Positions 1-58,402 are shown, counted from the first letter of the stretch. The stretch is 64,000 nucleotides of DNA from Vulcanimicrobiota bacterium (GCA_019235885.1 JAFAKB010000005.1:21409-85408); one strand, 5' to 3'. Program-made: numbers and translations. The notes: generated by a model from the letters alone, not told the origin.

Positions 1-1
1 C

Positions 2-23869: not shown

Positions 23870-24559
23870 ATGAACTTGCGATCTCCGGTCACCGTGACGG
23901 TCGGCGTGCTCGTCGTTCTGGTCGGCCTCCTCTTCGGCGCAATGCTCGCACTCCTCACGCGGCCCTCGAACCAGCAGACGCAGCGCATCGACGTCGCAAG
24001 CACGACTACAAGCACTCCCCCACGCGCGCTGCATAGCCGCCCGCCGGCCACTCCAAAGACCGCCGCGCCCACCGCAACACACACGGACCCAGCAACACCG
24101 ACCGCGACTGCCACGCCGGTGGCGACTGCCACACCGGTCCCGACTGGCACGCCGGTCGCGATTGCGACGGATTCTGCGTCCACGCCGTCTGAGCCGGTTG
24201 TCGCGCAGCGAGCGGGCGTTTGGCGGATTCAGGAAGCGAACGTTCAGGTCGGTACGATTGTTTGGGCCGGCCGAGGCGCCGCATCGAGCGGCGGCAACGC
24301 GATCGCGCTCAACGTCCATAAAGAAAGCGTCGCCGGTCACGGCGTGTCGCTTTGCGAGCGCCAAACGACGCTTCACGCGGTCGTAACCGCCGGCGCATCC
24401 CCGCAAACCGTCCCCTACCAAGAAGTGAACTGCTCGGGCGCCACGTCGAACGGCGAGATGCGTGTCAGCAGCTTTTCCGGCGACGGCCGCTCGTTCAGCG
24501 GCAGCTTCTGGAGCAGCGGATCAAAACTCGGCGACTTCACCGCGCAAGGTGGACCGTAA
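23870..24559 (+). CDS. Membrane-anchored hypothetical protein with Pro/Thr/Ala-rich linker
   Basis: N-terminal TM (VTVGVLVVLVGLLFGAMLALL), a PT-rich spacer, then a beta-rich C-terminal domain. Confidence 0.55.
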   Translation: MNLRSPVTVTVGVLVVLVGLLFGAMLALLTRPSNQQTQRIDVASTTTSTPPRALHSRPPATPKTAAPTATHTDPATPTATATPVATATPVPTGTPVAIATDSASTPSEPVVAQRAGVWRIQEANVQVGTIVWAGRGAASSGGNAIALNVHKESVAGHGVSLCERQTTLHAVVTAGASPQTVPYQEVNCSGATSNGEMRVSSFSGDGRSFSGSFWSSGSKLGDFTAQGGP

Positions 24560-24702
24560 GTTAGGTATGTTCTCCGCGCAAGCATTTTGCTAAGATATTT
24601 ATAGGGCGACGTCCGTCGCAAACGCACTGTCGCCACGCAACAAAGCGGCCTGATCGGTGCAGGAACACCGACCAGGCCCGTCACCCGATGGAGAAGCATC
24701 GA

Positions 24703-24777
24703 ATGACCATTCGCATATTCGGCGGATCACTCCAAATCCCGTCCGCAAACCTGCGCGATCGGGACGGCGGGAAGTGA
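24703..24777 (+). pseudogene. Internally deleted remnant (24 codons) of the HTH gene seen intact at 47235-47498
   Basis: MTIRIFGGS.. aligns with MTHRLFGAS.. of the intact copy. About 63 codons, including the HTH core, are missing. Its stop overlaps the GTG of the next gene (GTGA). Confidence 0.6.
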
Positions 24778-25097
24778 TCAAGAACGTCGTGCCTTTCAAG
24801 GTACCGGACATCTTCGCGCACCTCGGCATTGATTGGACGAGAGCAGCCACAACCCAACGCGAGCGCCTGCTGCGCGAGGCATTCCTCACGCAAGAAACCT
24901 CCTGCGGTATAAGCGGCCTGGTCTCGCTTCTCCTCTTGGCCGTCGTGTCGCGCCGTCAAGGCGCCGTCGCCGAAGATCTCAAAGCCGCGGCCGACTTCGC
25001 CGAGGTTATCTTGGCCATGGAGTTACGAAAGCACCAAGACGACACGCTGGCGGCGGTACAGTCATACGTCGACAACAACGGACCCCTTTGGTCCTAG
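24774..25097 (+). CDS. 107-aa hypothetical protein, paralog A of 47495-47815
   Basis: About 80 percent identical (my manual alignment, ~84/105) to the product of 47495-47815: KNVVPFK..LGIDWTRAA..ERLLREAFLT..SGLVSLLLL.VVSRRQGAVAEDL..AADFAE.ILAMELRKHQ. Confidence 0.7.
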   Translation: MIKNVVPFKVPDIFAHLGIDWTRAATTQRERLLREAFLTQETSCGISGLVSLLLLAVVSRRQGAVAEDLKAAADFAEVILAMELRKHQDDTLAAVQSYVDNNGPLWS

Positions 25098-25142
25098 CGG
25101 CTGCAGCCGAGCGACCCTGTCAAATACGCATTACAAACCTTC

Positions 25143-25625
25143 GTGGCAAAACAGTTGAACGTCCGCTATTGGATTGACGTCATCCGAATATTCCTGCGCG
25201 AACTGATCGAGGCGATGTCTCTGGTGGTAGGCCTTGGACTGCTCCCGGTCGGAGCACACTACCTATTCTCGTTGGAAAAGCCAGCAGACACTCGAGCGTG
25301 GGTTGTACCAGAGCTTTATCTCTTTGTCATGGTAGCATGTGGCCAAGCTGCGGCTGAGGCTTTTCGCGATGCAGACCGCGGACTCGCGCGGACGCTGGCT
25401 GGAATTGCAAGTTCGCTGGGTGTGCTGGTCGGCGCTGGGGCTTACGGAGTCCTTTATGTTCAGCCTAGTTCGATTGAAGCAGTTCTCGTGGACGAGTGGC
25501 TCCGTTCTAATGTAGTCCATGTTATGCTATCTGTGGCCGCCGGGTACAGCCTTTACCGCGGAAGTCGCCTTTTCAGGGACGCGCGCACCGAGGCAGCGAA
25601 GACCCGAAAACATCAAGCCCACTAG
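25143..25625 (+). CDS. Hypothetical 4-TM membrane protein (low G+C)
   Basis: GTG start. Hydrophobic helices (LVVGLGLLPVGAHYLF; LYLFVMVACGQAAA; LAGIASSLGVLVGAGAYGVLYV; VVHVMLSVAAGYSLY). Co-directional with paralog A. Confidence 0.55.
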   Translation: MAKQLNVRYWIDVIRIFLRELIEAMSLVVGLGLLPVGAHYLFSLEKPADTRAWVVPELYLFVMVACGQAAAEAFRDADRGLARTLAGIASSLGVLVGAGAYGVLYVQPSSIEAVLVDEWLRSNVVHVMLSVAAGYSLYRGSRLFRDARTEAAKTRKHQAH

Positions 25626-25632
25626 GAGCGCC

Positions 25633-25773
25633 ATGAAAGATCCTCTTGTTACCGCCTTCATCGTCATTTTGGTCGCCTTCGTCGTAACCGGCACCGCGGC
25701 GACAATCTACAACTTGCTTACGTTCTTGAAGCGCTCCGACGAAGGGGGTCAACGGCGAGGGCTTCCGCGTTAG
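25633..25773 (+). CDS. 46-aa single-TM mini-protein
   Basis: ATG at 25633 preceded by AGGAG (25624-25628). MKDPLVTAFIVILVAFVVTGTAATIYNLL, then a basic tail. Confidence 0.45.
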   Translation: MKDPLVTAFIVILVAFVVTGTAATIYNLLTFLKRSDEGGQRRGLPR

Positions 25774-25908
25774 GTTTTTGTCCCGCAGCCTACGACAGCC
25801 GACGCGACGATAAGGACCAGCTCTACCGCCGTGCCTTTGGACGGCCACCCTACCGCCGGTTCTTGGACGAAGTGGAACGCAGAGACCGCCCTACGGAGAT
25901 GCCGCGCG

Positions 25909-26286
25909 TCAGCGGCTGCGAACGATCATCAGGGCGCCAAGCAGGAACAGTGCCACAATGCCGAGCCCCGCTGCGGCTGGCGCGACGACAAGGCCGAGGA
26001 CGACGCCGGTCAGGGAGACGCCGATCCAGAACGGGGCGGGCGAGTGGGTGACGTAGGTGCCGACGTGTTCGCCGGCGGCTTCGGCCGGGGTTGCCTTCTT
26101 CTTGTCGGCGTACAGGTCGGCGTCGCGCTCGGCGAAGACCATGTACAGCGCGACGACGGTGAGCGCGGCGGACATGAAACCGAGCAGCATCGTTCCGGCC
26201 GGGTCGTGCGCCACCAGCCAGTACACGAGCGCGATGGTCGCCGAGAAGACCGCCGACGAGACGAACAGCATCAAACCGGTCTTCAC
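25909..26286 (-). CDS. ctaF: Cytochrome c oxidase subunit IV (actinobacterial CtaF type)
   Basis: 125 aa with 4 hydrophobic helices. Its GTG overlaps the ctaD stop (GTGA at 26283-26286). Confidence 0.65.
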   Translation of the reverse strand: MKTGLMLFVSSAVFSATIALVYWLVAHDPAGTMLLGFMSAALTVVALYMVFAERDADLYADKKKATPAEAAGEHVGTYVTHSPAPFWIGVSLTGVVLGLVVAPAAAGLGIVALFLLGALMIVRSR

Positions 26287-32056: not shown

Positions 32057-32847
32057 CGGCGGCGCCGCTGCTCTCGCTGCTGCTCGCGGCGGCCTCACCG
32101 CTCGCGCCCGCGACGCCCGCCGCCGCCAGCCTGCCGAACGCGCCGAGCTCGCCCGGCGCAGCGCTCTACGCGACGTACTGCGCGAGCTGCCACGGCGCGC
32201 AGGGCTGGGGCACCGCCGACGGACCGGACTTGCGCGGCGTCGGCCTCGCGGACGTCGACTTCTACTTGACGACCGGACGAATGCCGGCCGCGGTGCCGTG
32301 GCTGCAGATCGCGCACCGCGACGAGCGCAGCGGACAAGCCCTTTCGCTGGAACAAATTCGCGCGCTCGAAGACTACCTGGCGCCGACGGTCGCGGGCGGA
32401 CCGCCGATCCCGATGGTGATCGCGAACGGCAACCTCGAGCACGGCCACGCGCTGTATGCGCTGAACTGCGAGCACTGCCACGCGGCGGACGGTCAGGGCG
32501 GTGCGATCGGCCGGCTCGAGTGGGCACCCTCGCTCGAGCGCGCGACGATCAACGAGATCGCCGACGCGATCCGCGCGGGCCCCGGCGAGATGCCGCGCTT
32601 CGCCGACAGCCAGCTCAGCGCCGACGACCTGAACGACGTCGCCTCGTACGTGTTCCGGCTTCCGCTCGATTCGCAAGCGCCGCACGTTCCGCCGTTCCGT
32701 TCGTCCGGTCCGGTGCCGGAGGGCGCGGTCGGGTATCTTGCGGTCATCGCGCTGGTCGCGTTCGTCTTCACGTTCTGGCGGATCGACACCCCGCGCCCCG
32801 AGCGTGAAGAAGCAGTCCGCCGAGACGAAGGAGAACGATCGACGTGA
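32053..32847 (+). CDS. qcrC: Membrane-anchored dihaem cytochrome c (QcrC-like)
   Basis: Two CxxCH motifs (CASCH, CEHCH). C-terminal TM (GYLAVIALVAFVFTFW). GTG overlaps the ctaG stop. Confidence 0.8.
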   Translation: MTAAPLLSLLLAAASPLAPATPAAASLPNAPSSPGAALYATYCASCHGAQGWGTADGPDLRGVGLADVDFYLTTGRMPAAVPWLQIAHRDERSGQALSLEQIRALEDYLAPTVAGGPPIPMVIANGNLEHGHALYALNCEHCHAADGQGGAIGRLEWAPSLERATINEIADAIRAGPGEMPRFADSQLSADDLNDVASYVFRLPLDSQAPHVPPFRSSGPVPEGAVGYLAVIALVAFVFTFWRIDTPRPEREEAVRRDEGERST

Positions 32848-34856
32848 GACGCGGTCCTTGGACGCTCGCGGCGACCGCAACGGCACTTGCCGCGGCGGCG
32901 CTGCTCCTTTCCGGTGCCGCCTCGCGCGTGCAGCACGGCGGCGCGTTTACGCGTGCGCAGGCGACCAGCGGCGAGTACGTCTACGTGCAGTACTGCCTGC
33001 GCTGTCACGGCGCGAACTTGCAGGGCGTCGACGCGGGCGCGCTGATGGGCCCGCAGTTCGGCCGGTCGCTGACGGTCGCGAAGATGAGCACGCCGGACCT
33101 CTACAAGTTCATCAGCGGCGCGATGCCGCTCAACGCGCCGGGCAGCTTGAGCGAGAAGCAATACCTCGACGTGCTGGCGTTCATCCTGGAGAAGAACGGC
33201 TACCCGCCGGGCACCGCGCCGCTCACCAAACCGGCGCTCGCGCGCGTCGCGCTGCTGCCGTATCCGAACCTCGCGCCGAATCCGGTAGCTTCACCGAACC
33301 TGCAGGCGCTCGGGACGCCCACGGTTCCGCCGAGCGCGCACGTCGACCTCGACGACACGCTGCTGCGCGGCGCCGACCGCGACGCGAAGGACTGGCGTCT
33401 TCCCGGGCGCACGTACGCCAACACGCGCTACTCGCCGCTCGCGCAGATCGACGCCGGCAACGTTTCCCGGCTGCAGCCGGTAAAAGTCGTGCACACCGGG
33501 ATGAACGAGAGCTTCGAGACGACCCCGCTCGTCGCCGACGGCGTGATGTACGTGACGACGCCGGTCGTCGAAAGCCGGATGAAGATCCTGGCGCTGAACG
33601 CCGCGACCGGCGAGCTGCTGTGGACGACCAGCTACCCGATCGGGCCGCACAAGATCTGCTGCGGGCCGAACAACCGCGGCGCCGCGCTCGCCTACGGCAA
33701 GCTCTACGTGACGACGCTGGACGCGAAGCTGCTTGCGCTCGACGCGCGCACCGGCGCGCCGAAGTGGGCGGTGAAGCTCGCCGATCCGTCCGTCGGGTAC
33801 TCCGAGAGCATGGCGCCGCAAATCTACGAGCGCGAGGTGATCGTCGGCAGCGCCGGCGCCGAATGGGCGGTGCGCGGCTTCGTCGCCGCGTACGACGCGC
33901 TCACCGGAGCGCCGCGCTGGCGCTGGTGGGCGACCGATCCGAAGACCTTCTCGGGCGACTCGTGGAAAACGGGCGGCGGAACGGTGTGGACGACGCCGGC
34001 GGTCGACGTCGCGCAGGCGCTGGTGATCTTCAGCACCGCCAACCCGAACCCGGACCTCGAGGGCTCGACGCGCAAGGGCGACAACCTCTACACCGACTCG
34101 ATCGTCGCGCTCGACGTGCGCACCGGCAAGCTGCGCTGGTACTACCAAGAGGTGAAGCACGACCTGTGGGACTACGACGCGACCAGCAACGTCGTGCTCT
34201 TCGACCTGCACCAGAACGGCAAGACGATCCCCGCCGCGGGCGAAGCCGGTAAAGTCGGCTGGTACTTCGTCGTCGACCGCCGCACCGGCAAGCTGCTGCG
34301 CAAGTCCGAAGCGTTCGTCGCGCAGAACAAGAACATGTTCGGCAAGAAGTCGGTGCTGCCGGGCGCCAACGGCGGCTCCGAATGGTCGCCGCCGGCGTAC
34401 TCGCCGCAGACCGGCCGGGTCTACGTCCTCGGCATGGATCAGCTCATGGACTTCAAGCCGCAGCCCGGCGCGAACCACCCGGGCTTCCTGCACACCGGCA
34501 GCGTCTTCACCAACGTTCAGAAGCCGCAGAAGATCCAGCGCGGAACCTTCACCGCGATCGACGTCGCGAGCGGAAAGATCGCCTGGCAGTACCACGCGCC
34601 GAAACCGATGATCGGCGGCGCGCTCGCGACCGGGGGCGGGCTGGTCTTCACCGGCGAAGGCGACGGCACGTTCGAAGCGTTCGACGCGCGCAGCGGCAAG
34701 AAGCTGTGGACGTACGCGCTCGACGGCGGCGTGAACGCGCCGCCCGTTTCGTACGAGGTGAACGGCACGCAGTACGTCGCGGTCGCCGCCGGCGGCAACT
34801 TCCAGCTCGACTTCAAGCGCGGCGACGAGTTGGCGATCTTCGCGCTGAAGCGCTAG
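32844..34856 (+). CDS. PQQ-dependent dehydrogenase with N-terminal cytochrome c domain
   Basis: GTG overlaps the qcrC stop. Signal peptide and CLRCH haem motif, then quinoprotein propeller motifs (DWRLPGRTYANTRYSPL, repeated W-motifs, GGSEWSPPAY). Confidence 0.85.
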   Translation: MRRGPWTLAATATALAAAALLLSGAASRVQHGGAFTRAQATSGEYVYVQYCLRCHGANLQGVDAGALMGPQFGRSLTVAKMSTPDLYKFISGAMPLNAPGSLSEKQYLDVLAFILEKNGYPPGTAPLTKPALARVALLPYPNLAPNPVASPNLQALGTPTVPPSAHVDLDDTLLRGADRDAKDWRLPGRTYANTRYSPLAQIDAGNVSRLQPVKVVHTGMNESFETTPLVADGVMYVTTPVVESRMKILALNAATGELLWTTSYPIGPHKICCGPNNRGAALAYGKLYVTTLDAKLLALDARTGAPKWAVKLADPSVGYSESMAPQIYEREVIVGSAGAEWAVRGFVAAYDALTGAPRWRWWATDPKTFSGDSWKTGGGTVWTTPAVDVAQALVIFSTANPNPDLEGSTRKGDNLYTDSIVALDVRTGKLRWYYQEVKHDLWDYDATSNVVLFDLHQNGKTIPAAGEAGKVGWYFVVDRRTGKLLRKSEAFVAQNKNMFGKKSVLPGANGGSEWSPPAYSPQTGRVYVLGMDQLMDFKPQPGANHPGFLHTGSVFTNVQKPQKIQRGTFTAIDVASGKIAWQYHAPKPMIGGALATGGGLVFTGEGDGTFEAFDARSGKKLWTYALDGGVNAPPVSYEVNGTQYVAVAAGGNFQLDFKRGDELAIFALKR

Positions 34857-34859
34857 TCG

Positions 34860-35180
34860 TCAGTCGAGCTGGCGGAGGAACGTCAGCGCGCGCATCATCT
34901 CGTCGATCGCGAGCGGGCCTTGGCCGGCCTTCACCGCGTTGACGAAGGCGTGCTCGAAGTAGTAGCGCAGCGCGACGCGCGCCGCGGCGTCGAGCGCGCC
35001 GCGCACGGCGGCCATCTGGCGCAGCACGTCGATCACGTACGCCCCTTCGTCGAGCTGCGCGAGGATGTGGTCGATGTGGCCGCGCGCCGTCTTCAGGCGG
35101 TTGGTGACGTCCGTCAGGGGTTCGCCTGCCAGCGGCCGGCGCAAGGGGTCGAGTCGGCGAGAGCGCGGCATGTCGTTCAC
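34860..35180 (-). CDS. CsoR/RcnR-family (DUF156) transcriptional repressor, Cys-less variant
   Basis: NRLKTARGHIDHI..YVIDVLRQMAAVRGAL..RYYFEHAF matches the family helix pattern, but the protein contains no cysteine at all. Confidence 0.75.
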   Translation of the reverse strand: MNDMPRSRRLDPLRRPLAGEPLTDVTNRLKTARGHIDHILAQLDEGAYVIDVLRQMAAVRGALDAAARVALRYYFEHAFVNAVKAGQGPLAIDEMMRALTFLRQLD

Positions 35181-35189
35181 CTACACCCG

Positions 35190-35203
35190 TACCCCACGGG
35201 GCA
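35190..35203. promoter_or_regulatory. CsoR-type GC-rich inverted repeat (candidate operator)
   Basis: TACCCC-AC-GGGGCA (5 of 6 positions palindromic), 10 nt upstream of the repressor start, within the 136-nt divergent region to the S8-M4 gene. Confidence 0.45.
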
Positions 35204-35316
35204 GGGTTAAGCCTCGCGACGTCGGCCTCCGGCGAGCCGCGCCGCAGTTCCGGCCGATGACTAGCCCTAGCAAGAATTGGAGGGCAAATCAAGAACCCAT
35301 CCGCCGGGAGGGTTTG

Positions 35317-38300
35317 ATGTCCGACCAGCGGCCCGTCAGAGCGATCCTCGTGAAAGGCCGGTTGCCGCCGCAGGGCGCCGCGTTCACGCTGTCCGGCGCG
35401 CCGCTGGGGCTGGCGCGGACGACCTTCGAGTTCACCTCGCGCCCGCTCTTCACCAGCATCGGCCGCGACGGCGCGCTCGGCATCGCGGCTGCGCCGTCGA
35501 CGTGGCACATCGCCGAGGCGGCGGAGCTCGACGCCGCCCACGGCTGGGACGTTTGCCACGCGCTCGCCGGCAGCGGCCTGGGTCTGGCCGGAAGCGCGGT
35601 GGAGTTCGCCGAGCCCGATCTGCAGCAGCAGTGGACGTTCGGCGAGGACGCGGCACACGCGCTTCGCGCGGCCGGCGGCTGCGACGAGATCTGGAATCAG
35701 GACGGAACCTTTCCGCCGCATCCTGCCGACGACGCGCACCCGCTGTGGTACCGCGACGCGGAGCATTCGAACTTCGCCGGCGGCGCCGGCGACGGCGCGG
35801 GGATCTGCATCGCGCACCTCGACACCGGCATCTCGCCGCACGACACCCAGCCCGTGAACCTGCGCGCCGATTTGCAGCGCAACTTCGTCGACGCCAACTT
35901 TCCGAACGACGCGACGGACCGCTCACCGACGTCCGGGCTCTTGAACCTGCTCGGCCACGGGACGGCGACGATCGCGATTCTCGCCGGCGCCGGCGCGGGC
36001 GGCGGCGCGCCGATCGGCGCCGCGCCCGGCGCGTCGGTCGTTCCGGTGCGCGTCGCGAACGGCGTCGTGCTGTTCAGCAACAGCTCCGTCGCGCAAGGCT
36101 TCGACTACGTGCACGCGCTGCTGCAAGATCCCGCGACGCGCGTGCACGTGGTGACGATGAGCATGGGCGGGCTTGCCTCGCAGGCGTGGGCCGACGCGAT
36201 CAACGCGCTCTACGAGGCGGGCGTCTTCGTGGTGACGGCGGCCGGCAACAACCACGGGAACTTGCCGACGCGCAACATCGTCTACCCGGCGCGGTTTCGG
36301 CGCGTCGTCGCGGCGACCGGCGCGATGTCCGACTTCACACCGTACGCCGACCAGCGGGGTCTCGTGATGGCCGGAAACTACGGACCCGCGAGCAAGATGG
36401 ACACCGCGCTCGCGGCGTTCTCGCCGAACACGCCCTGGGCGCGGATCGGCTGCCCGCACACCGTCGATCACAACGGCTCTGGAACCTCGTCGACCTCACC
36501 GCAGATCGCTGCGGCGGCAGCGCTGTACTGGCAAGCGCATCACGCCGCGCTCGACGATCCGGCGCAGTATCCCGAAGCGTGGATGCGGATCGAGGCGGTG
36601 CGCGCGGCGCTGTTCGGCGCGGCGGCGCGCAAGACCGCGGACGTCGAGCATTTCGGGCAAGGAACGTTGCGCGCGCTCGAAGCGCTCGCGATCGCCCCGC
36701 CCGCGAGCGCGACGCTCAAGAAACAGCCGCCCGACAGCGCCTCGTTCGCGCTGCTCCGCATCTTCACGGGACTCGGCCTCGCCGCGGCGGCCGGCTCGCC
36801 GCAGCAGCGCATGCTCGAGGTCGAAGCGCTGCAGCTCTCGCAGAGCGCGGCGCTCGAAGCGCTCTTGCCCGATCCCGAGCAGCCGCCGGACGATCCGAAG
36901 CAGCGCGCGGCGGTCGCCGAGGCGCTGGCGAGCGATCCGCACGCCTCGCAGGCGCTGCGCGACGCGCTCAAGCCGCTGGTGACCGGGCAGATCCATCCCG
37001 TCGCGACGCCGGCCGCGACGCCGCTGAGCGCGATGGACAAGCTGCATCTCGAGCACGCGATGCAACCGCAGGTCTCCCCGCCCGGGAAACGCCGGTTGCG
37101 CGTCTACGCCTACGATCCGGCGCTCGAGGTGCAGCTCGAAACGTATGCGATCAACCAGGCGGTGGTCGACGTGCGCTGGGAAGGGCTCGAGCCCGGGCCG
37201 GTCGGCGAGTACATCGAGGTCGTCGACGTCGACCCGTCGAGCCGCTGCTGCTACGCGCCGGTCGACCTCGACGACCCGTACGTGCTGGTGCAGAACGGCC
37301 GCGCGCCGGCCGAGTCCGACGCGCAGTTCCACCAGCAGATGGTCTACGCGGTCGCGATGAAGACGATCGAGCACTTCGAGCACGCGCTCGGGCGCGTCGC
37401 GCTGTGGTCGCCGCACGCGACCGGCAGCGGCACGAGCTACGCGGCGAGCTACGTGCAGCGCCTGCGCATCTACCCGCACGCGCTGCGCGAGGCGAACGCG
37501 TACTACAGCCCCGACAAGAAGGCGCTGCTGCTCGGGTACTTCCCGGCGCAAACGAAGAACGTCGGCGTCAACGCGCCCGGCACGCTGGTGTTCGGGTGCC
37601 TCTCGTACGACATCGTCGCGCACGAGACGACGCACGCGCTGCTCGACGGCCTGCACCGCCGCTACAGCGAGCAGACGAACCCGGACGTGCTGGCGTTCCA
37701 CGAAGCGATGGCCGACATCGTCGCGCTGTTCCAGCACTTCACCTTGCCCGAAGCGCTGCGCGACCAGATCGCGAAGACGCGCGGCGATCTCACCCAGGAG
37801 AACCTGCTGAGCGAGCTCGCGTACCAGTTCGGTCAGGCCGAGAAAGGACACGGCGCGCTGCGCGACGCGCTCGGGCACTACGACGACACCGGGACCTGGA
37901 TCGCCAACAAGCCGACCGGCGAGGAGTACATGAGCGCGACCGAACCGCACGACCGCGGCTCGGTGCTGGTCGCCGCGGTGTTCGACGCGTTCCTGCGCAT
38001 CTATCGCATCCGCTGCGCCGATCTGTTTCGGCTGGCTTCGGCGGGGACCGGCGTGCTGCCGCCGGGGAACATCCCGCACGATCTGGTCGAGCGGCTCGCG
38101 CAAGAGGCGAGCAAGGTCGCGAAGCAGTGGCTCGACATCTGCATCCGCGCGCTCGACTACTGCCCGCCGGTGGACCCGACGTTCGGGGACTACCTGCGCG
38201 CGCTGATCACCGCCGACCGCGACCTCGTCCCCGACGACGACCGGTCCTACCGCATCGCGTTCATCTCGGCGTTCCGCGACCGCGGAATCTTCGCGCAGGG

Positions 38301-38931
38301 CGTGCGCTACCTCGCCGAGCGCAGCCTGGCGTGGGAGCCGCCGCCGCAACCGTTCAAGAACCTCAAGCACATTCTTGCGCGGATGACGCTGAACTGGGAT
38401 CTCGACTCGAAACGGCGTGAAGCATACGACACCTCGAACCACAACGCAGCGCTGTTCCACGGCTGGCTGATGTCGGACGACGTCAGCAAAGACGAGCTCG
38501 ACATGCTGTGCCTCTACCGCGGCGGGTGCGAGGATTTCGAGATCGTCAAAGGCATCCCGGGGACCCTCGCCAACTTCGAGGTGCACTCGGTTCGCCCGGC
38601 GCGGCGGATCGGCCCGGACGATCAGACGCGCACGCAGCTGATCGTCGAGATCACGCAGACGTGGCGCAGCCCCGGTTACAACGACTACCGCGGCGGCGTC
38701 ACGCTGATCGTCGACCTGGTGGCGAACGAGGTCCGCTACGTCGTCCGCAAGCGGGTCGACAGCGAAGCGCGCTTTCGTGCGCAGCAGGGGTTGCCGGACG
38801 CCGGCGGTGCGACCGCGCTCAGCGACGGCGAGGAGGCCTCGCTGCACGACAACTACTACGACCCGCGCAACGTCGGCAGGGAACCGTTCGCGATGCTGCA
38901 CCGTTCGAGCGCAACGATGGTGGGCCGATGA
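35317..38931 (+). CDS. 1204-aa cytoplasmic dual protease: S8 subtilase domain fused to a thermolysin-like (gluzincin HExxH) metalloprotease domain
   Basis: ATG at 35317 after GGGAGG. No signal peptide. S8 triad D169 (AHLDTG, nt 35821), H214 (GHGT, nt 35956), S391 (GTSSTSP, nt 36487). NAYYSP..LLLGYF, HETTH (nt 37621-37635) and FHEAMAD (E796). Confidence 0.85.
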   Translation: MSDQRPVRAILVKGRLPPQGAAFTLSGAPLGLARTTFEFTSRPLFTSIGRDGALGIAAAPSTWHIAEAAELDAAHGWDVCHALAGSGLGLAGSAVEFAEPDLQQQWTFGEDAAHALRAAGGCDEIWNQDGTFPPHPADDAHPLWYRDAEHSNFAGGAGDGAGICIAHLDTGISPHDTQPVNLRADLQRNFVDANFPNDATDRSPTSGLLNLLGHGTATIAILAGAGAGGGAPIGAAPGASVVPVRVANGVVLFSNSSVAQGFDYVHALLQDPATRVHVVTMSMGGLASQAWADAINALYEAGVFVVTAAGNNHGNLPTRNIVYPARFRRVVAATGAMSDFTPYADQRGLVMAGNYGPASKMDTALAAFSPNTPWARIGCPHTVDHNGSGTSSTSPQIAAAAALYWQAHHAALDDPAQYPEAWMRIEAVRAALFGAAARKTADVEHFGQGTLRALEALAIAPPASATLKKQPPDSASFALLRIFTGLGLAAAAGSPQQRMLEVEALQLSQSAALEALLPDPEQPPDDPKQRAAVAEALASDPHASQALRDALKPLVTGQIHPVATPAATPLSAMDKLHLEHAMQPQVSPPGKRRLRVYAYDPALEVQLETYAINQAVVDVRWEGLEPGPVGEYIEVVDVDPSSRCCYAPVDLDDPYVLVQNGRAPAESDAQFHQQMVYAVAMKTIEHFEHALGRVALWSPHATGSGTSYAASYVQRLRIYPHALREANAYYSPDKKALLLGYFPAQTKNVGVNAPGTLVFGCLSYDIVAHETTHALLDGLHRRYSEQTNPDVLAFHEAMADIVALFQHFTLPEALRDQIAKTRGDLTQENLLSELAYQFGQAEKGHGALRDALGHYDDTGTWIANKPTGEEYMSATEPHDRGSVLVAAVFDAFLRIYRIRCADLFRLASAGTGVLPPGNIPHDLVERLAQEASKVAKQWLDICIRALDYCPPVDPTFGDYLRALITADRDLVPDDDRSYRIAFISAFRDRGIFAQGVRYLAERSLAWEPPPQPFKNLKHILARMTLNWDLDSKRREAYDTSNHNAALFHGWLMSDDVSKDELDMLCLYRGGCEDFEIVKGIPGTLANFEVHSVRPARRIGPDDQTRTQLIVEITQTWRSPGYNDYRGGVTLIVDLVANEVRYVVRKRVDSEARFRAQQGLPDAGGATALSDGEEASLHDNYYDPRNVGREPFAMLHRSSATMVGR

Positions 38932-40307
38932 GCGCCGCCTACCGCGCGAAAGTTCGCATGTACCGCCACGGCCTGGGCGACTGTTTCTTGATTTCGCTGC
39001 CGCGCGACGGGGAAGTTGCGCCGTACACGATCATGATCGACTGCGGCGTCATCCTCGGCACCCCCGACGCGCAGGCGAAGATGAGAGCGGTCGTCGCCGA
39101 CGTCGCCAAGACGACGAAAGGCGCCGACGGCCGCGGCAAGGTCGACCTGCTGATCGCGACGCACGAGCACTGGGACCACCTCTCCGGCTTCGTGCAAGCG
39201 CCGGACGAGCTGGCGGGCATCGACTTCGCCGAGGTGTGGCTGGCCTGGACCGAAGACCCGAACGATCCGCAAGCGAAACGGCTCGCGCAGGAGCGCGGCA
39301 GCGCCGTGCGCGCGCTGCAGCTCAGCGAAAGCCGCCTGCGGCTCGCCGGCGCCGGCGAGACCGCCGACCAAGTCGGCGATTTCCTGACCTCGTTCTTCGG
39401 CGTCGCGAGCGGAAGCTCGACCAGCGACGCGCTCGAGGTCGTGCGCGGCCTCGCCAAATCCAAGCCGCCGCGGTACTGCTCGCCGAGCGATCCGCCGGTG
39501 CAGCCGCCGGGAACGTCGGTGCAGCTGTTCGTCCTCGGCCCGCCGCGCGACGAGCAGCTCTTGAAGAAGACGGAAGTGGCGGCGAGCAGTCCGGAGACGT
39601 ACGGCTTGCTGCAGCAGATGTACGGCGTCGACGCCTCGATCGCCGACCTCTCGCACTTCGCCGGCGCGCTCGACACCGTCGATCCGGACGCGCCGTTCGA
39701 TCCGATGCAGACGATCCCGTTCCCGGTCGCGCAGGCGATGCCGTTCTTCGTGCAGCGCTACTTCGGGAGCGACGCCGACCCGGCCGGCGACGGTCCGGCA
39801 TGGCGGCGCGTCGACAGTGCGTTTCTGGACGCGGCGCCCGCGCTCGCGCTCCAGCTCGACAACGCGACGAACAACACCAGCCTCGTGCTGGCGATTCAGC
39901 TTCAGAACGGCGACGTGCTGCTGTTCCCAGCCGACGCGCAAGTCGGCAACTGGCTCTCGTGGCAGAACACGAAGTGGTCGGTCGGCGGACAGGACGTCAC
40001 CGGGCCGGACCTGCTCGAGCGCGCGATCTTCTACAAAGTCGGCCATCACGGAAGTCACAACGCGACGCTCAAGGCGCACGGCCTGGAGCTGATGGACAGC
40101 CTGCAGCTCGCGATGATTCCGGTCAACGTGCAGATGGCGCAGCAGAAGCGCTGGAACCGCATGCCGCTCACCGCGCTGGTCGACGCGCTGAAGGCCAAAA
40201 CAAACGGCGCCGTCGTTCAGGCCGACCTCGACCTCCCGGCCAACGCGCGTTCCGTCGCGAGCTCGCCGGACGACCCCTCGCTCTGGTACGAGGTAACGAT
40301 CCCGTAA
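38928..40307 (+). CDS. MBL-fold metallo-hydrolase (ComEC-like subtype), no signal peptide
   Basis: ATG overlaps the upstream stop (ATGA at 38928-38931). HxHxDH motif THEHWDH (nt 39159-39179) and a later YKVGHHGSHN motif. Confidence 0.85.
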   Translation: MSAAYRAKVRMYRHGLGDCFLISLPRDGEVAPYTIMIDCGVILGTPDAQAKMRAVVADVAKTTKGADGRGKVDLLIATHEHWDHLSGFVQAPDELAGIDFAEVWLAWTEDPNDPQAKRLAQERGSAVRALQLSESRLRLAGAGETADQVGDFLTSFFGVASGSSTSDALEVVRGLAKSKPPRYCSPSDPPVQPPGTSVQLFVLGPPRDEQLLKKTEVAASSPETYGLLQQMYGVDASIADLSHFAGALDTVDPDAPFDPMQTIPFPVAQAMPFFVQRYFGSDADPAGDGPAWRRVDSAFLDAAPALALQLDNATNNTSLVLAIQLQNGDVLLFPADAQVGNWLSWQNTKWSVGGQDVTGPDLLERAIFYKVGHHGSHNATLKAHGLELMDSLQLAMIPVNVQMAQQKRWNRMPLTALVDALKAKTNGAVVQADLDLPANARSVASSPDDPSLWYEVTIP

Positions 40308-45974: not shown

Positions 45975-46292
45975 TCAGACGCGATCCCGACATGGGTCCT
46001 CGCGCCCTTCGAGCGCGTCCAGCGTCTCCCAGCGCGCCGGGTAGAAACTACGTTCCATCGGAACCGCGGGCCAGCCGTAGAGATCGCGCAATGCGTGGTA
46101 CGTCGGGGACGTCGGGAACGGGAAGGCGTCGAAGACCTCACGCCAACCGCGAAATAGTTCCACGGTGTCACGGTCGGGCGGTACGCCGAAATCGCCGGCA
46201 GCGCAGATGCGCTGGACGTAATCCGCGCGGTCGAGGTCGTCCTCGAACTCGTCGCCATGGTCGACGTCGGGATAAACGGTACGGTCGATCAC
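45975..46292 (-). CDS. 105-aa acidic hypothetical protein translationally coupled to AbiEii
   Basis: GTG overlaps the AbiEii stop (GTGA at 46289-46292). VIDRTVYPDVDHGDEFEDDLDRADY... No family recognised. Confidence 0.5.
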   Translation of the reverse strand: MIDRTVYPDVDHGDEFEDDLDRADYVQRICAAGDFGVPPDRDTVELFRGWREVFDAFPFPTSPTYHALRDLYGWPAVPMERSFYPARWETLDALEGREDPCRDRV

Positions 46293-47026
46293 TGACGGAG
46301 GTCTTCGTCCTTGACGTCGCCGACTCCGGGTCCGAGCTCGTCGCGACGAGCGGTGAACACATCCCGATACCATGCCCGCAGCCGCTCGGCGGCAGGGCGC
46401 TCGGCGGCGGGGATGCGCTCGATCGGTCGGCGTGCCTCGATCGTCGCCAAGTGCATCTTCACCCGCAAGCGGGCGTCTTCGATCTCGATCCCCGGACGCT
46501 TCGCGTTCCATAGTTGCCAGCAGCGGTCGATCGTGAGGAGTCCCGAGTCGACGATCTCCTTGATGTCAACGAAGTCGCGGGGCGCGCCCCGAGCGACCAG
46601 AGCCATCATTTTGGAGGCGACGTTGTCGTCCAGTGTCTCGATCGGGAAGCGGCCCCAAGGACTCGCCACCGGGGGATCAATTTCAACAGTGCGAACCGAG
46701 ACCTGGAACGAGAAGGCCTTGTTGCCGCCGTCGAAGGCCTCCAAGGAGATCGTTTCGCCCCACGTGCGCTCGCGGACAGAGTATCCGAACTCAGCCGCAG
46801 TCTGCATAAATGCTTCGCGCGCAGCGGCGAGCGCATGCGGATCCTCGCGTGAGCGCCACCACGCGTCAACGTCCCCGGTCTCGCGATAATCGAGGTAATG
46901 CTTCAGCGCAAAGTAGCCGCCCAACACGAATTGTTCGGCCTGAGATTGACCCTGCAATCGTTCGAGAAATGCAGCGGCAAACGGGTTGAGGTGCTTAGGC
47001 TTGACGGGTTCCACGCCCTCAGGCAC
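46289..47026 (-). CDS. abiEii: AbiEii/AbiGii-family nucleotidyltransferase toxin (DUF1814, type IV TA)
   Basis: LGGYFALKHYLDYRETGDVDAWW (NTase Gx..D.D motif region) and KMMALVARGAPRDFVDIKEIV (family C-terminal motif). Confidence 0.75.
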   Translation of the reverse strand: MPEGVEPVKPKHLNPFAAAFLERLQGQSQAEQFVLGGYFALKHYLDYRETGDVDAWWRSREDPHALAAAREAFMQTAAEFGYSVRERTWGETISLEAFDGGNKAFSFQVSVRTVEIDPPVASPWGRFPIETLDDNVASKMMALVARGAPRDFVDIKEIVDSGLLTIDRCWQLWNAKRPGIEIEDARLRVKMHLATIEARRPIERIPAAERPAAERLRAWYRDVFTARRDELGPGVGDVKDEDLRQ

Positions 47027-47234
47027 TCTTCAATTCGATCACAGTGGTCTTCGGCTCGCGTTCGACAACACGGTCGAGTACATCGCGATATGAGTTGTGC
47101 ACGTCGGTTTTCCTTGCGTAGCCGTAGTCAAGATGCTACAATAGTAGCGCGCGTCACGCGCGAAAACACCTTGGTGACTCGGCCGGCGTTGCAGCGCCGA
47201 CCGAGTCCGTCACCCGATGGAGTAGACCCACCGA

Positions 47235-47498
47235 ATGACACACCGCCTATTCGGCGCATCCGCGCCGATCACCCCGCCTGCGTCATCCGCGCAGAATCAG
47301 GCTCGCCGGCACATCGCCCGTGGTGCGTGGCTTGTGGCACGGCTCGCCCGCCGTGAGCCGGTACGATATGAACATTATGCCGAGCGCTTCGGCCGTCCAC
47401 GGCGCACGTTCTGCTGCGAAGTCGCCGCACTGCGCGATATCGGCATCGTGCGCGCGAGCGAGCTGCTCGATCGGCAGCGCCGGATCGGTGCCCGATGA
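47235..47498 (+). CDS. 87-aa stand-alone winged-HTH protein (DeoR/YafY N-terminal-like)
   Basis: YEHYAERFGRPRRTFCCEVAALRDIGI fits the ..LA..F.VS.RT..RD...L...G. pattern. Its stop overlaps the next ATG (ATGA at 47495-47498). Confidence 0.6.
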   Translation: MTHRLFGASAPITPPASSAQNQARRHIARGAWLVARLARREPVRYEHYAERFGRPRRTFCCEVAALRDIGIVRASELLDRQRRIGAR

Positions 47499-47815
47499 AA
47501 AATGTCGTACCTTTCAAGGCACCCGAGCCGTTCCAACGGCTCGGAATCGATTGGACTAGAGCGGCCGCGACCGAGAGCGAACGACTCCTGCGCGAGGCAT
47601 TCCTCACGCACGAAAGCTCGTGCGGACTGAGCGGACTCGTATCGCTCCTCCTGCTGTCCGTGGTCTCGCGGCGTCAAGGTGCTGTCGCGGAAGATCTTCA
47701 ATCTGCCGCAGACTTCGCTGAAATCATCCTGGCGATGGAACTGCGCAAACACCAAGTCGACACCTTGGCTGCGGCACAATCTTACGTCTCGGCTAATGGC
47801 TCGATGTGGTCGTGA
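47495..47815 (+). CDS. 106-aa hypothetical protein, paralog B of 24774-25097
   Basis: See paralog A. Coupled to the upstream HTH gene. Confidence 0.7.
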   Translation: MKNVVPFKAPEPFQRLGIDWTRAAATESERLLREAFLTHESSCGLSGLVSLLLLSVVSRRQGAVAEDLQSAADFAEIILAMELRKHQVDTLAAAQSYVSANGSMWS

Positions 47816-48030
47816 CCGTGGCGGCAGGCCGTCGATTCAGGAACTGACGAGGCGAACAAACAGGCGTCATCGCCTCTCTCGCTGGTGTCGCGAACCGCCG
47901 GCAAAAGTCGGGCGTTGTAGGGCTCCCGACCGTCACTCGGCGTGCGCGATCAGCCGCAGCCGCAGTGACCCGGAGCGCTTGGGTTAAAGCGAGCGGTACG
48001 ATTAGCGCTCGGCGCTCACAACGAATCGAA

Positions 48031-48060
48031 GAGAGGGGGCCGCGCCAGCGGTCCCCTCTC
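48031..48060 (-). terminator. Hairpin terminator candidate after the GHKL ATPase gene
   Basis: gagagggg..cccctctc, an 8-bp perfect stem 5 nt past the stop at 48066. The downstream tract on the minus strand (ttcgattcgt) is only moderately T-rich. Confidence 0.45.
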
Positions 48061-48065
48061 GACGT

Positions 48066-50147
48066 CTACGCGCTTTCGGCGAGCTGTTCGTCGCGCTCTT
48101 GGCGCATCATCAAGCGCCGCAAGCGTTGATCGGAGTTCACGCGCCGTTTGATCTGCTCCCGCATGCCAGGTCGAGCCAGAACAATAGCCGTGAGCGCCTC
48201 AGGCGAAACAAGTTTCTCAGCATCGTCCTCGGTCCAAAGTTTACCGTGCCCAACCATGAACGAAGCGCGGTACGTCATGACCGTGAACAGGATCTGAGCC
48301 GCGCAGACGAGTTCAACGATCTCGCGTACCTTCGGCTCGGCCTGTTCCTGGACTTCCTCCGACGAAAATGTGTTCGACAACGTTTCCGCAATGAGATGCT
48401 CCATAACGTCGAAGTCGCGGTTGACGTAGATGATGCCGCTCGGATACTGCGGCGTCGCGACACGAGCGTATTCGGCAGCGCGCCCACGGAATGCGAAGTT
48501 GTGTTCCTCTTCCGTCAGCAGCTTGATAGCCGGCCGTTTCTCGGGCTGGCGCTGCATCTTGCCGCGCATCGTTCCGTTCGTCACAACGCGCGTCGTGCGT
48601 CGCGTCTGCGGGGACGAACGACGCTTGATCTCACGGTTCGGGTCCGGCGTCTTTCGCGGCTTACGAGGGGCATCGGGGTCGGGCGAGTTACGTCCCGCCC
48701 CGCCACCCTCGGATCCGTTCATTCCTGACGTCGACTTTTTACGCTTCGTGCCGACCACCATCTGCGGCACCGAGAAATCGTCCTTCATCTCGGCGATGAT
48801 CTTGTCGAGTTCCGTGTCGAAGTCGGTACTGCCGAGCTTGCTGCGGATGTATTGGTCGAGTTCCGGCGCCTGGTCCGGATAAACCTGAGCGAATTCGTCG
48901 GCCCACGCGTGCCACGGGAGGTGGCGCTTGTTCATACGCAGCGACGTGCGGTTCATATTGGACCGCACGTCGAGGGTCGGATCCGGCTCGACGACGAGAC
49001 AGACGTTCTCCTGGCCGGCGAAGATGCCGAAGCGCTGCAGCATGTGCGCCGCGTCGACCTTCGTCGCGAGATCGAACTGCTCGCCCTGGTGGATGGCTGA
49101 AACGATGGCGTGATTTTTCGTCCCGGTGAGCCACGGGAAGTGGTAGCGACGGCGCTTGCGCTTTTCCGCGTTCGTCATCGGTCGGCCGGTCTCGCGGTTA
49201 ATGACCGTCGGTTCGACCGGGTCGTCACCCTCGCCGAGCACCCACCAATGAACGTCGGCACCGGTAATGCGCACGGTGCCAGACATCGCGCCGAATCGCA
49301 TCAGGAACTCTTTGGTTCCGCGGATGCGCCGAACGGTGAGCCCGCCCTTGCCGTCGGGCTCAATGCGCACCCGGAAACCGATCTCGTCGGGAATTTCGAA
49401 ATACTGACGATTGAAGATATGGTTCAGCCAGTACGAGGTGTTTTCGCGCGCACGACCGTCCGCGCCGATCTCATCCCGGAGATCTTCGGGCATGATCGTC
49501 GTGTCGTCGGCCTCCGAGAAGCCGTGAAGGACCACGACGGTTCCGTGATCGCCGATGAAGTCGGGCTTCATCAACGCGATCTCTTCCGTCGAGAAGTGGT
49601 CTTCGTCAATCGGGATGACGCTACGCACCGCGAGGACGTTTCCGGCTTCATCCGTCTCCTCGACGTCGATGGTCCCGTAGATCGGAATGCCGTCCCGCTC
49701 ATGCACTTTTCCGAGGGTCACGACGAAGCCCTCACCGTCGCGCCACGAACGGAATTCGACGCCGTGCGGATTGAAGCGCAACGTCGCGGCGCGCGCGCCG
49801 ATACCGTAGTTCGCGTCGAGCGATTGCGTCTTGCCGCTCTTAAAGATCTGGTGCAGATCGCGCATCTGCGCCTCCGTCATGCCGATGCCATCGTCGGCGA
49901 TGGCGAGCTTTTTCGCGCCGGTCTCCGCGAGCGTCAGCGGATCGGCGTACACTTCGATCCGACCCTTGTACCCCTCGTCGCGACGGGGAGAGCGAAGATA
50001 CTCCAAGATCGCTTCAATGCTGTTCTTGGAGATTTCACGGTGCTGCTTGCCCGGACCGATGTCCTCACCAAACAGCTCAGCGAAGAACGAGGGCCCGCTG
50101 CCCTCAATCTTGAGTTCTGGCACTTTAGTTGTCCCTTCATGGCCCAC
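48066..50147 (-). CDS. 693-aa stand-alone GHKL (Bergerat-fold, MORC/paraMORC-like) ATPase with basic disordered linker and helical C-terminal domain
   Basis: N-box EISKNSIEAI (Asn42 at nt 50022-50024), G1 box IADDGIGM, G2 box YGIGARAA. Contains KRKKSTSG..RKPRKTPDPNREIKRRSSPQTRRTTR. Lower G+C than the backbone. Confidence 0.75.
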   Translation of the reverse strand: MGHEGTTKVPELKIEGSGPSFFAELFGEDIGPGKQHREISKNSIEAILEYLRSPRRDEGYKGRIEVYADPLTLAETGAKKLAIADDGIGMTEAQMRDLHQIFKSGKTQSLDANYGIGARAATLRFNPHGVEFRSWRDGEGFVVTLGKVHERDGIPIYGTIDVEETDEAGNVLAVRSVIPIDEDHFSTEEIALMKPDFIGDHGTVVVLHGFSEADDTTIMPEDLRDEIGADGRARENTSYWLNHIFNRQYFEIPDEIGFRVRIEPDGKGGLTVRRIRGTKEFLMRFGAMSGTVRITGADVHWWVLGEGDDPVEPTVINRETGRPMTNAEKRKRRRYHFPWLTGTKNHAIVSAIHQGEQFDLATKVDAAHMLQRFGIFAGQENVCLVVEPDPTLDVRSNMNRTSLRMNKRHLPWHAWADEFAQVYPDQAPELDQYIRSKLGSTDFDTELDKIIAEMKDDFSVPQMVVGTKRKKSTSGMNGSEGGGAGRNSPDPDAPRKPRKTPDPNREIKRRSSPQTRRTTRVVTNGTMRGKMQRQPEKRPAIKLLTEEEHNFAFRGRAAEYARVATPQYPSGIIYVNRDFDVMEHLIAETLSNTFSSEEVQEQAEPKVREIVELVCAAQILFTVMTYRASFMVGHGKLWTEDDAEKLVSPEALTAIVLARPGMREQIKRRVNSDQRLRRLMMRQERDEQLAESA

Positions 50148-57972: not shown

Positions 57973-58282
57973 AGGTCACCATGAAGTCGGCGATGTCGTC
58001 GTCGTCAGCCTTGAAGGCGCTGACGATGCGCTTCCGCCCTTCGCGCTCGACGTAAACGGCGCTGACGAAGACCGTCTCCACCAAGCCCGTCGCGATGAAA
58101 TGATCTTCGCCGTCGGAATGAGCCTCGTCCCAGCGCTCGACGTACCGGTTCGACTCGAAGATCCGCTTGGCGGCGTGGAAATCGAAGCCGCTCCTTGCGA
58201 GCCGGTCGGCGCTTTTGTCCTGGTCCCATTCGAACGCCTCGTCGCGGTATTCGGCCAATCCACAGTTCCATTCTATACGCAA
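57962..58282 (-). CDS. brnT: BrnT (DUF497) ribonuclease toxin
   Basis: FEWDQDKSADRLARSGFDFHAAKRIF..HSDGEDHFIATG..RIVSAFKA matches the BrnT pattern. TTG start at 58282. Confidence 0.8.
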   Translation of the reverse strand: MRIEWNCGLAEYRDEAFEWDQDKSADRLARSGFDFHAAKRIFESNRYVERWDEAHSDGEDHFIATGLVETVFVSAVYVEREGRKRIVSAFKADDDDIADFMVTYAG

Positions 58283-58305
58283 TTGACGGATACGTCAATT
58301 GCGTA
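58276..58305. promoter_or_regulatory. Perfect 13-bp inverted repeat (candidate BrnTA operator)
   Basis: tacgcaattgacg-gata-cgtcaattgcgta, spanning the brnT start codon and 5' region. Confidence 0.6.
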
Positions 58306-58402
58306 CCACCGAGTTCCAGAGGAAGGGCGCCTGACACGCGCCGGCAAGCCTCGCTCTAAGGAGGGAGGTGCCGCTTCGGTGTGCTCTTCAGTTGCGGCTG
58401 CG

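Follow-up and report, generated by a model that had tools for sequence, protein, structure and literature searches.

Results

Organisation of the locus

We analysed a 64-kb stretch of DNA from a Vulcanimicrobiota bacterium, here called the window, and in it the region 34860-40307, which holds three genes. Two of them lie on the forward strand: a gene for a fusion protease of 1204 amino acids (aa) at 35317..38931, and directly behind it a gene for a 459-aa hydrolase of the ComEC-type metallo-β-lactamase (MBL) fold at 38928..40307, a putative DNase zymogen. The third, on the reverse strand at 34860..35180, encodes a CsoR/FrmR-family regulator without cysteines and is a neighbour gene. The initial annotation had joined all three into one module, with the regulator as repressor of a dual protease and a ComEC-type hydrolase. 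The operon of dual protease and MBL protein was borne out, by the subtilase triad, the HEXXH motif, the MBL motifs and a structural match to ComEC; the repressor did not turn out to belong to it.

The protease gene is best read from an ATG with the Shine-Dalgarno sequence GGGAGGG in front of it. A longer open reading frame (ORF), 35065-38931 (1288 aa), was rejected, since it overlaps csoR and the ATG at 35317 both has the Shine-Dalgarno sequence and fits the lengths of the homologs. The stop of the protease gene and the start of the MBL gene overlap in the letters ATGA (38928-38931), as first annotated. The G+C content of the genes, 0.68-0.70, is the same as that of the flanks, which are a pyrroloquinoline quinone (PQQ) dehydrogenase with a cytochrome c domain on one side and Mrp/ApbC on the other by their domain matches, so the description of the genes as native in composition and set among housekeeping genes also held. 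The highest 19-residue Kyte-Doolittle mean is 1.52 in the protease and 1.09 in the MBL protein, and no signal peptide or transmembrane segment was found in either. Judging from their sequences both proteins are cytoplasmic, in agreement with the intracellular location that had been proposed. No ATPase or helicase domain is encoded in or beside the pair, no sigma-70-like promoter was found in the spacer between csoR and the protease gene, and no tRNA or Rfam element was matched within the window.

The fusion protease

The protease is built, in this order, of a pro-like N-terminal region, an S8 subtilase domain, a low-complexity linker and a thermolysin-like metallopeptidase module. Pfam recognises only the S8 domain in the 1204-aa protein. 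All features of the protease and of the MBL protein given below are on the forward strand.

The N-terminal region (aa 1-150, 35317..35766) has no Pfam match. It carries a conserved FAEPD motif, with W63, W77, C80, H81, E99, P100, D101 and W106 invariant, and it co-occurs with S8 among representative proteins; possibly it is a pro- or inhibitory segment of the subtilase. The S8 domain itself (aa 160-449, 35794..36663) matches PF00082 with E=6e-20 over the full length of the model (1-288 of 288), and has the catalytic triad D169/H214/S391 in the Asp-His-Ser order. Its sequence matches in the PDB are proteinase K and the intracellular subtilisins. The linker that leads from S8 to the metallopeptidase module (aa 470-587, 36724..37077) is rich in Ala, Pro and Gln and falls in poorly conserved alignment columns. 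More than 1399 homologs of the protease were found, about 55% identical across phyla; an NCBI protein assigned to a Candidatus Eremiobacteraeota metagenome-assembled genome is 100% identical. When 20 homologs from several phyla were aligned, D169, H214, S391, H769-E770-T-T-H773 and E796/D800 were invariant.

The C-terminal module (aa 588-1204, 37078..38928), which includes a C-terminal β-sheet subdomain, is matched by neither Pfam nor NCBIfam. A PDB profile search with this part of the protein gave thermolysin as the sole match, at E=0.74, aligned exactly on the HEXXH and NEAxSD segments. HETTH (aa 769-773, 37621-37635) thus aligns on the HELTH of thermolysin and HEAMAD (aa 795-800, 37699-37716) on its NEAISD, the segment that bears the third zinc ligand, and the gluzincin signature, a Glu about 20 residues downstream of HEXXH, is present. 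An AlphaFold2 (AF2) model of aa 561-1204 has a pLDDT of 70, and its best Foldseek matches are aureolysin and thermolysin, with non-significant E values of about 0.4-0.9. From these motifs and weak structural matches we consider the module to be a thermolysin-like gluzincin that is not filed in family M4. With thermolysin and aureolysin (MEROPS M4, clan MA(E)) it shares the HEXXH helix and the downstream Glu in (N/H)EAxxD; it differs from them in its predicted cytoplasmic location, in the lack of a propeptide and signal peptide, and in an extra N-terminal β subdomain and the C-terminal β-sheet subdomain.

The module also occurs without the subtilase. A search of 1.84 billion representative proteins brought up 3950 relatives, counted as clusters at 50% identity, with E<=1e-3; 1115 of them reach E<=1e-30. 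Among the best 150, 74 are stand-alone, 45 are fused to S8, 10 are tandem duplications (six with an N-terminal copy that lacks HExxH) and 21 have other N-terminal extensions, one of them an Amidase_2 fusion. The stand-alone homologs on plasmids, described below, are 577-661 aa long and are annotated as hypothetical proteins; most of them start at RRLRVYAFDP, directly after the position of the linker in the window protein, and all retain HExxH and (H)E-x-x-x-D (HEaFaD). HEXXH and the downstream Glu were kept in 80 genome loci, described below, and in 9 stand-alone proteins. The six proteins in which the module is duplicated within one polypeptide and the N-terminal copy has lost HExxH (P0313, P0316, P0318, P0323, P0347 and P0439) suggest a pseudo-protease that acts as sensor or decoy.

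The MBL protein

The MBL protein has the motifs HxHxDH (aa 79-84, 39162-39179, within THEHWDH at aa 78-84), NNTS (aa 315-318, 39870-39881) and HHGS (aa 373-376, 40044-40055, within YKVGHHGS at aa 369-376), and an invariant D336 (39933-39935). Its relatives number more than 7000, and in an alignment of 48 of them H79, H81, D83, H84, D336, H373 and H374 are invariant, and D38 and NNTS are common to them too. The AF2 model has a pLDDT of 82. In Foldseek the best match to a solved structure is the MBL nuclease domain of ComEC (9ic4, E=2.5e-9, TM-score 0.72 on the target), so the label ComEC-type is correct. The two share the HxHxDH, NNxS, GD and HHGS motifs, whereas ComEC is a membrane channel for DNA uptake and the window MBL is soluble and stands alone. 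Since the 266-aa ComEC domain is aligned over 460 columns, about 190 residues are inserted in the window protein.

The inserted residues are found in three places. Relative to the ComEC core there is a helical insertion at aa 110-198 (39255..39521), with helices at 114-139, 143-157 and 165-173 in the model. Loop 1 (aa 228-258, 39609..39701) is variable in length, rich in gaps and predicted with low confidence (pLDDT <50), and it is preceded by a conserved E-x-Y/W that is also retained in systems that lack S8. Loop 2 (aa 282-299, 39771..39824), also with pLDDT <50, ends in a conserved WRRID of which W292 and R293 are invariant. In view of the model, loop 1 is a candidate gating or cleavage linker and loop 2 a candidate second linker.

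Weak similarity of the N-terminal core to MBL proteins of known defence systems is seen in several searches. NCBIfam gives 6A-MBL (3.9e-8) and Avs1a (6e-6), both weak and far under the curated cut-offs; PADLOC gives the LmuA model (2.4e-9) as well as RTasMBL (the DRT MBL) and Avs1a, again weak and under the cut-offs; and hhalign aligns the protein to EpiAvs1a with a probability of 87%. Many homologs, such as P0143, P0197, P0169, P0174, L081 and L085, have a basic N-terminal tail of 30-80 residues, rich in Ala, Lys, Pro and Arg and similar to histone H1, which suggests DNA binding by those proteins. The window MBL is without such a tail.

Linkage of the two genes in genomes and plasmids

A scan with one genome per species gave 591 confirmed relatives of the protease, and the best 80 loci were retained. 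They come from at least 8 phyla, with Eremiobacterota, Proteobacteria, Acidobacteriota, Planctomycetota, Chloroflexota, Gemmatimonadota and Actinomycetota among them, and all 80 have both the S8 and the HEXXH motif sets. About 5 stop at a contig edge. In 51 of the approximately 75 informative loci an MBL homolog follows 3' of the fusion protease on the same strand. The genes lie close together, with a gap of at most 13 nt or an overlap in 10 of the 11 annotated pairs and in the loci L096-L099. A different arrangement was observed in a Thermoanaerobaculia locus (L038, 5519-9849), where a gene of about 1233 aa is lodged between protease and MBL.

No third gene is conserved with the pair: among 1307 called neighbour ORFs no cluster other than protease and MBL is present in more than 14 of the 80 loci. 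We considered a cluster for a ribosomally synthesised and post-translationally modified peptide, or another biosynthetic or catabolic one, and rejected it, as protease and MBL alone are conserved and no precursor-like or tailoring genes recur. Nor is there a consistent alternative partner in the loci without MBL, where patatin, sulfotransferase, radical SAM, histidine kinase, GMC oxidoreductase and Ser/Thr kinase genes were seen.

The plasmids show which part of the protease goes with the nuclease. When 72,556 plasmids were searched by tblastn, an MBL homolog was present in 35 records, and in every one of them the thermolysin-like module is encoded directly upstream on the same strand. S8 is fused to it in 5 of these records; in the other 30 the module stands alone. 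The thermolysin-like module, and not S8, tracks the nuclease as its constant partner. With the genome loci, the plasmids confirm the co-localisation on which the first description of the pair depended. We also compared the distance matrices of the domains as a pointer to the protease partner of the MBL, and this was abandoned, as the correlation with the MBL is 0.69 (rho) for S8 and 0.78 for the M4-like module and does not discriminate between them.

The position upstream of the stand-alone module is filled by different genes: patatin in A. tumefaciens and R. leguminosarum, phospholipase D (PLD) in B. quebecense, an S1/P1 nuclease in R. leguminosarum Ta1k, and in Hymenobacter (L082) an SMC/ABC-type ATPase, the sole relative with one. 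Systems without S8 include those of Agrobacterium pAtH25_79a and of R. leguminosarum pRle248a, the latter with patatin, M4-like module and MBL. P0360 has a further alternative occupant of the S8 slot. Several loci have DUF2235 genes in the vicinity, in A. vitis on the downstream side of the MBL gene. Since patatin and the others fill the same position, S8 occupies a slot that is filled elsewhere by other degradative enzymes. Patatin can also be present in addition to S8. It is found in 8 of the 80 genome loci and adjoins the protease in 7; in L097-L099, relatives with 62% identity, its gene lies in front of the S8 fusion and overlaps it by 8 nt. The patatin, PLD and DUF2235 neighbours raised the idea of secreted or type VI secretion toxins, which was rejected because the proteins have no signal peptide or transmembrane segment and no VgrG, Hcp or PAAR gene was seen in the inspected loci.

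Genomic context of the relatives and of the window

Several relatives lie beside known defence genes. Hachiman (DUF1837 and helicase) adjoins the module in three loci (L083, L088 and L089), the last of which also has a CBASS cyclase, and two SIR2 genes together with an IS5 element are found on plasmid pCMU01 of Methylorubrum extorquens CM4 (L081), whose protease-MBL pair is 55% identical to that of the window. In two alphaproteobacterial genomes (L004, 3322-9959, and L006) a RADAR-like pair (RdrA/RdrB), the RdrA ATPase and an 863-aa adenosine-deaminase protein, lies directly upstream of an operon of patatin, S8/M4-like protease and MBL. Integrases are present in L082 and L084, and some relatives are carried on conjugative plasmids. 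About 10% of the 92 nearest large neighbours in MBL-positive genome loci match PADLOC models (RdrA, mad2/3/6, AriA, PD-T4-6, MkoA) at E<1e-10, a fraction that is indicative only, as it has no matched background. A defence-island or mobile-element context is seen around these relatives and is not seen in the window or its Eremiobacterota relatives.

A tblastx comparison with Elarobacter (L001) gave about 78-79% identity for the protease segments and about 74-75% for the MBL, whereas Mrp reached 95% and the cytochrome genes about 84-88%; as whole proteins protease and MBL are 73% and 72% identical. The pair evolves faster than its flanks.

A GMC oxidoreductase gene is found upstream of the protease in L043, L044, L047, L055, L057, L064 and L073, and, in unrelated arrangements, near the protease or M4-like gene in L063, L074, L077, L085 and L099. 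It is often accompanied by a cytochrome c protein and patatin, and in L085 by a small subunit similar to FAD-SLDH. The upstream neighbour in the window is a PQQ/cytochrome c dehydrogenase, and the recurrence may be a coincidence or a functional link. Within the window the G+C content is 0.60-0.64 at 1-6000, 24000-26000, 46000-50000 and 58000-60000, as compared to about 0.68-0.72 elsewhere.

The CsoR-like neighbour gene

The CsoR-like protein is 106 aa as called, contains no cysteine and matches PF02583 with E=4.8e-17. Most of its homologs have 103 aa, which makes the ATG at 35171 the likelier start and the spacer to the protease gene 145 nt instead of 136. With the CsoR/RcnR/FrmR repressors it shares the domain, the length of about 103 aa and an inverted repeat of G/C tracts ahead of its own gene; unlike them it lacks Cys ligands. 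Val and Ala occupy the X and Z positions of the W-X-Y-Z fingerprint, and a homolog in L092 is also free of cysteine. A protein without cysteine cannot carry out the Cu(I), persulfide or formaldehyde chemistry known from the characterised CsoR members.

The imperfect C-tract/G-tract inverted repeat ACCCGTACCCCACGGGGCAGGGT lies at 35185..35207, with the core CCCCACGGGG at 35192-35201. It is short, and was missed by an automated repeat search; the pattern CCCCNNGGGG occurs once in the window, as compared to 0.59 times expected. The repeat precedes the ATG of csoR by 20 nt, while the distance to the start of the protease gene is about 115 nt. Palindromes of the same C-tract/G-tract kind lie upstream of four csoR homologs. 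The repeat is plausibly an operator by which CsoR controls its own gene. The 136-nt divergent control region of the initial annotation is therefore probably 145 nt long and does contain an inverted repeat, which plausibly serves csoR itself.

The search for a divergent csoR gene beside the relatives came out against the proposed module. None of the 80 related genome loci has a CsoR homolog, and neither do the closest relatives L001, L096, L097/L098 and L099, which add three further loci, nor any of the eleven annotated plasmid loci. Four csoR homologs (L092-L095, ~4001-8300; identity 63-75%) are each the first gene of an operon that also encodes an ASRT-fold protein (PF07100) and a thiamine pyrophosphate (TPP) enzyme, together with mandelate-racemase-like (MR/MLE) genes in three of the four and FAD-oxidase genes in two; none of these operon genes is present in the window. 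As compared with Elarobacter (L001, 5917-6428), the extra DNA in the window, 32844-35316, is exactly the PQQ dehydrogenase and csoR, and in L096 (2856-5888) an 870-aa gene and a cupin gene occupy that place. It follows that the slot upstream of the protease is a local hotspot of gene turnover. As the gene is not linked to the pair in relatives and its homologs head the ASRT/TPP operon, we rejected CsoR as a component of the module; it is an unrelated neighbour, probably autoregulated. Two Bradyrhizobium-like metagenome-assembled genomes (L009 and L015, 6681-9821) have genes for a TPP-dependent enzyme and an MFS-like membrane protein immediately in front of the protease gene, and further out one for an ATPase of the HerA/DUF87 type. 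The TPP enzyme recalls the operon of the csoR homologs, which is probably a coincidence.

Discussion

Two publications from 2025 describe systems of the same kind. Tuck et al. (Science 2025, PMC12799240) report on ComEC-like MBLs encoded with trypsin-like proteases or, in Canu, with a caspase. These 'gated' pro-nucleases have an active site blocked by two insertions; they become DNases when cut at two linkers, and both activities are required for defence. Their trypsin-type systems are Hachiman HamMAB and Avs1, with variants of Lamassu and DRT also identified, and the legend of Fig. S2 has a 'subtilase' track. Evans et al. (bioRxiv 2025, PMC12642450) describe the same mechanism for the MBLs of Avs2 and Avs4, and name an S8 subtilisin-like 'Clade 3'. 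Setting both papers together, we infer that the window pair belongs to this subtilase/S8 clade. Like the members of 'Clade 3' and of the subtilase track, it has a co-oriented ComEC-like MBL beside an S8 gene and is widespread across phyla; what is different here is that a thermolysin-like HEXXH module is the constant partner, mostly without S8 on plasmids. The claim that the combination of genes matches no named system has thus been overtaken, as protease-MBL zymogen modules including the S8 clade were catalogued in 2025, and the pair is best regarded as an uncharacterised variant of a kind already described. The available text of the two papers does not mention a metallopeptidase, and we found no literature in which one is combined with the subtilase-type MBL module. 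The invariant thermolysin-like neighbour, the variable upstream slot and the relatives beside defence genes seem to be new here.

The comparison with the trypsin-activated MBLs (HamM/HamAB, Avs1a/Avs1b, VcMBL/Avs2, AtMBL/Avs4, the hydrolase-type LmuA and the DRT UG9 MBL) shows both likeness and difference. In all of them a ComEC-like MBL is linked to a protease in a separate gene, and the insertions lie between the HxHxDH and the NNxS/HHGS motifs. The window protease, however, combines S8 and metallopeptidase and is not of the trypsin type, the two genes stand in the opposite order, with the MBL second, and there is no fused STAND, helicase or SMC sensor. The window MBL is also larger, 459 as compared to about 370-390 aa, its first insertion is helical, and it shows no evident counterpart of the conserved Ile cleavage sites. 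With Canu (CanABC) it has in common a small stand-alone locus in which the nuclease gene is 3' of a gene for a non-trypsin protease. Canu has a caspase/paracaspase with an Ig-like domain and CanB, while the window has neither a caspase nor a third gene, only S8 and HEXXH.

By analogy with these systems, it is slightly more probable than not that the pair is a self-contained, translationally coupled module of protease and pro-nuclease, of the anti-phage abortive-infection kind, in which the thermolysin-like domain licenses the MBL; we put the probability at roughly 0.55. The self-damaging effector set that the initial annotation had guessed at fits with this, given the defence-island context of the relatives and the work in PMC12799240 and PMC12642450. 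The MBL would be a ComEC-like, metal-dependent DNase, kept latent by its approximately 190 inserted residues, that is by the helical insertion and the two flexible loops. Because no NTPase sensor is encoded, the large protease itself would be the sensor of the trigger, which would probably be a phage-derived protein or a damage signal. On this trigger the partner protease would cut the linkers of the MBL, and the freed nuclease would degrade DNA and halt the infected cell. We propose the C-terminal thermolysin-like zinc domain as the licensing protease because it is the invariant neighbour of the MBL, and the fused S8 domain with its pro-like N-terminal region could then act as an amplifier or as a further latent effector. 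We infer the zymogen state, the cleaving protease, the DNase activity, the trigger and the defence phenotype of the window pair from the relatives and the published systems.

Several observations weigh against this interpretation. The window pair is not in a defence island; it lies between respiratory (cytochrome) genes and Mrp, and the same chromosomal position is conserved in three other Eremiobacterota contigs, including Elarobacter (L001) and L096. No MBL was found within 10 kb in about 24 of the 75 informative fusion-protease loci, from which it follows that the protease has a function independent of the nuclease. No relatives were seen in a scan of IMG/VR viral contigs, and the protease matches no PADLOC model. 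The thermolysin assignment depends on motifs and on scores that are not significant. Only the N-terminal 80-90 residues or so of the MBL resemble the tested defence MBLs, the later motifs being matched by eye, and its first insertion is a fairly confident helical prediction and not disordered. The subtilase clade has been catalogued without experiment in both PMC12799240 and PMC12642450, and the clade names imply S8, not the metallopeptidase, as the partner of the MBL.

That last point leads to the closest alternative, in which the S8 subtilase cleaves and activates the MBL and the thermolysin-like module is a sensor or regulatory domain that possibly autoprocesses the linker. The S8 triad is invariant, the S8-MBL distances are correlated, the conserved aromatic residue before loop 1 would suit the P1 site of a subtilisin, and both papers class this MBL clade by its S8 neighbour. 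However, the 30 plasmid homologs of the MBL without fused S8 all have the metallopeptidase module, the aromatic residue is retained in systems that have no S8, the correlation with the M4-like module is slightly higher, and the conservation of HExxH...E throughout would be unexpected in a purely sensory domain. We regard activation by S8 as possible and clearly less probable than licensing by the thermolysin-like domain.

It is improbable, in our view, that the pair serves a physiological role outside immunity, such as a regulated proteolysis combined with nucleic-acid turnover in which the protease is primary and the MBL an accessory hydrolase. Such a role would fit the position kept in Eremiobacterota, the third or so of fusion proteases that have no MBL, the lack of relatives on viral contigs, a conserved cluster in Pyrinomonadaceae where a protease without MBL is found with a cytochrome c protein, GMC oxidoreductase and patatin, and the recurrence of GMC oxidoreductase in L074, L077, L085 and L099. 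It agrees less well with the identity of about 55% between Eremiobacterota and Alphaproteobacteria, which points to horizontal spread, with carriage on conjugative plasmids and the company of Hachiman, CBASS, SIR2 and RADAR, with neighbourhoods that are highly variable, with the faster evolution of the pair than of its flanks, or with an MBL whose nearest counterparts are a DNA nuclease fold and models of defence MBLs. Least probable is a three-gene module in which the CsoR repressor governs the divergent operon as a stress-triggered degradation pathway. The genes are indeed divergent, with a spacer of 136-145 nt that contains the CsoR-type G/C-tract inverted repeat, and a local regulation in the genome of the window itself is conceivable. 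Nevertheless, CsoR is lacking at all 80 loci, in the four closest relatives and at all annotated plasmid loci, the PQQ dehydrogenase and csoR are an indel relative to Elarobacter, all four csoR homologs head the ASRT/TPP-enzyme operon with upstream palindromes of their own, and the repeat is much nearer to the start of csoR than to that of the protease. A false lead has been removed in this way; the csoR-like gene without cysteines belongs to a different biology.

If the licensing of the MBL by the thermolysin-like domain is taken one step further, it is conceivable that this module is a sensor-protease hub of immunity, which would license interchangeable latent effectors: always the ComEC-like DNase, and in addition S8, patatin, PLD, S1/P1 nuclease or DUF2235 lipases. 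We offer this idea tentatively and think it rather unlikely as it stands. If it is true, the window protein would be an intramolecular cascade from metalloprotease to subtilase, without an NTPase sensor, that releases both indiscriminate proteolysis and DNA degradation, a two-tier arrangement reminiscent of the initiator and executioner caspases.

In current annotation pipelines these genes go under the names 'S8 family peptidase', 'hypothetical protein' and 'MBL fold metallo-hydrolase', and as a system they escape PADLOC. Proteolytic licensing of MBL nucleases was established in late 2025, for trypsin- and caspase-type partners on known sensors alone. If our interpretation is true, there is a third branch, a large one, whose protease is a zinc metallopeptidase missed by the domain databases. 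This branch would be a compact unit of two genes without an NTPase sensor, in which a second degradative enzyme is swapped in and out. It would offer a simple system for the study of how a protease itself senses infection, and it may supply a bacterial instance of a protease cascade.

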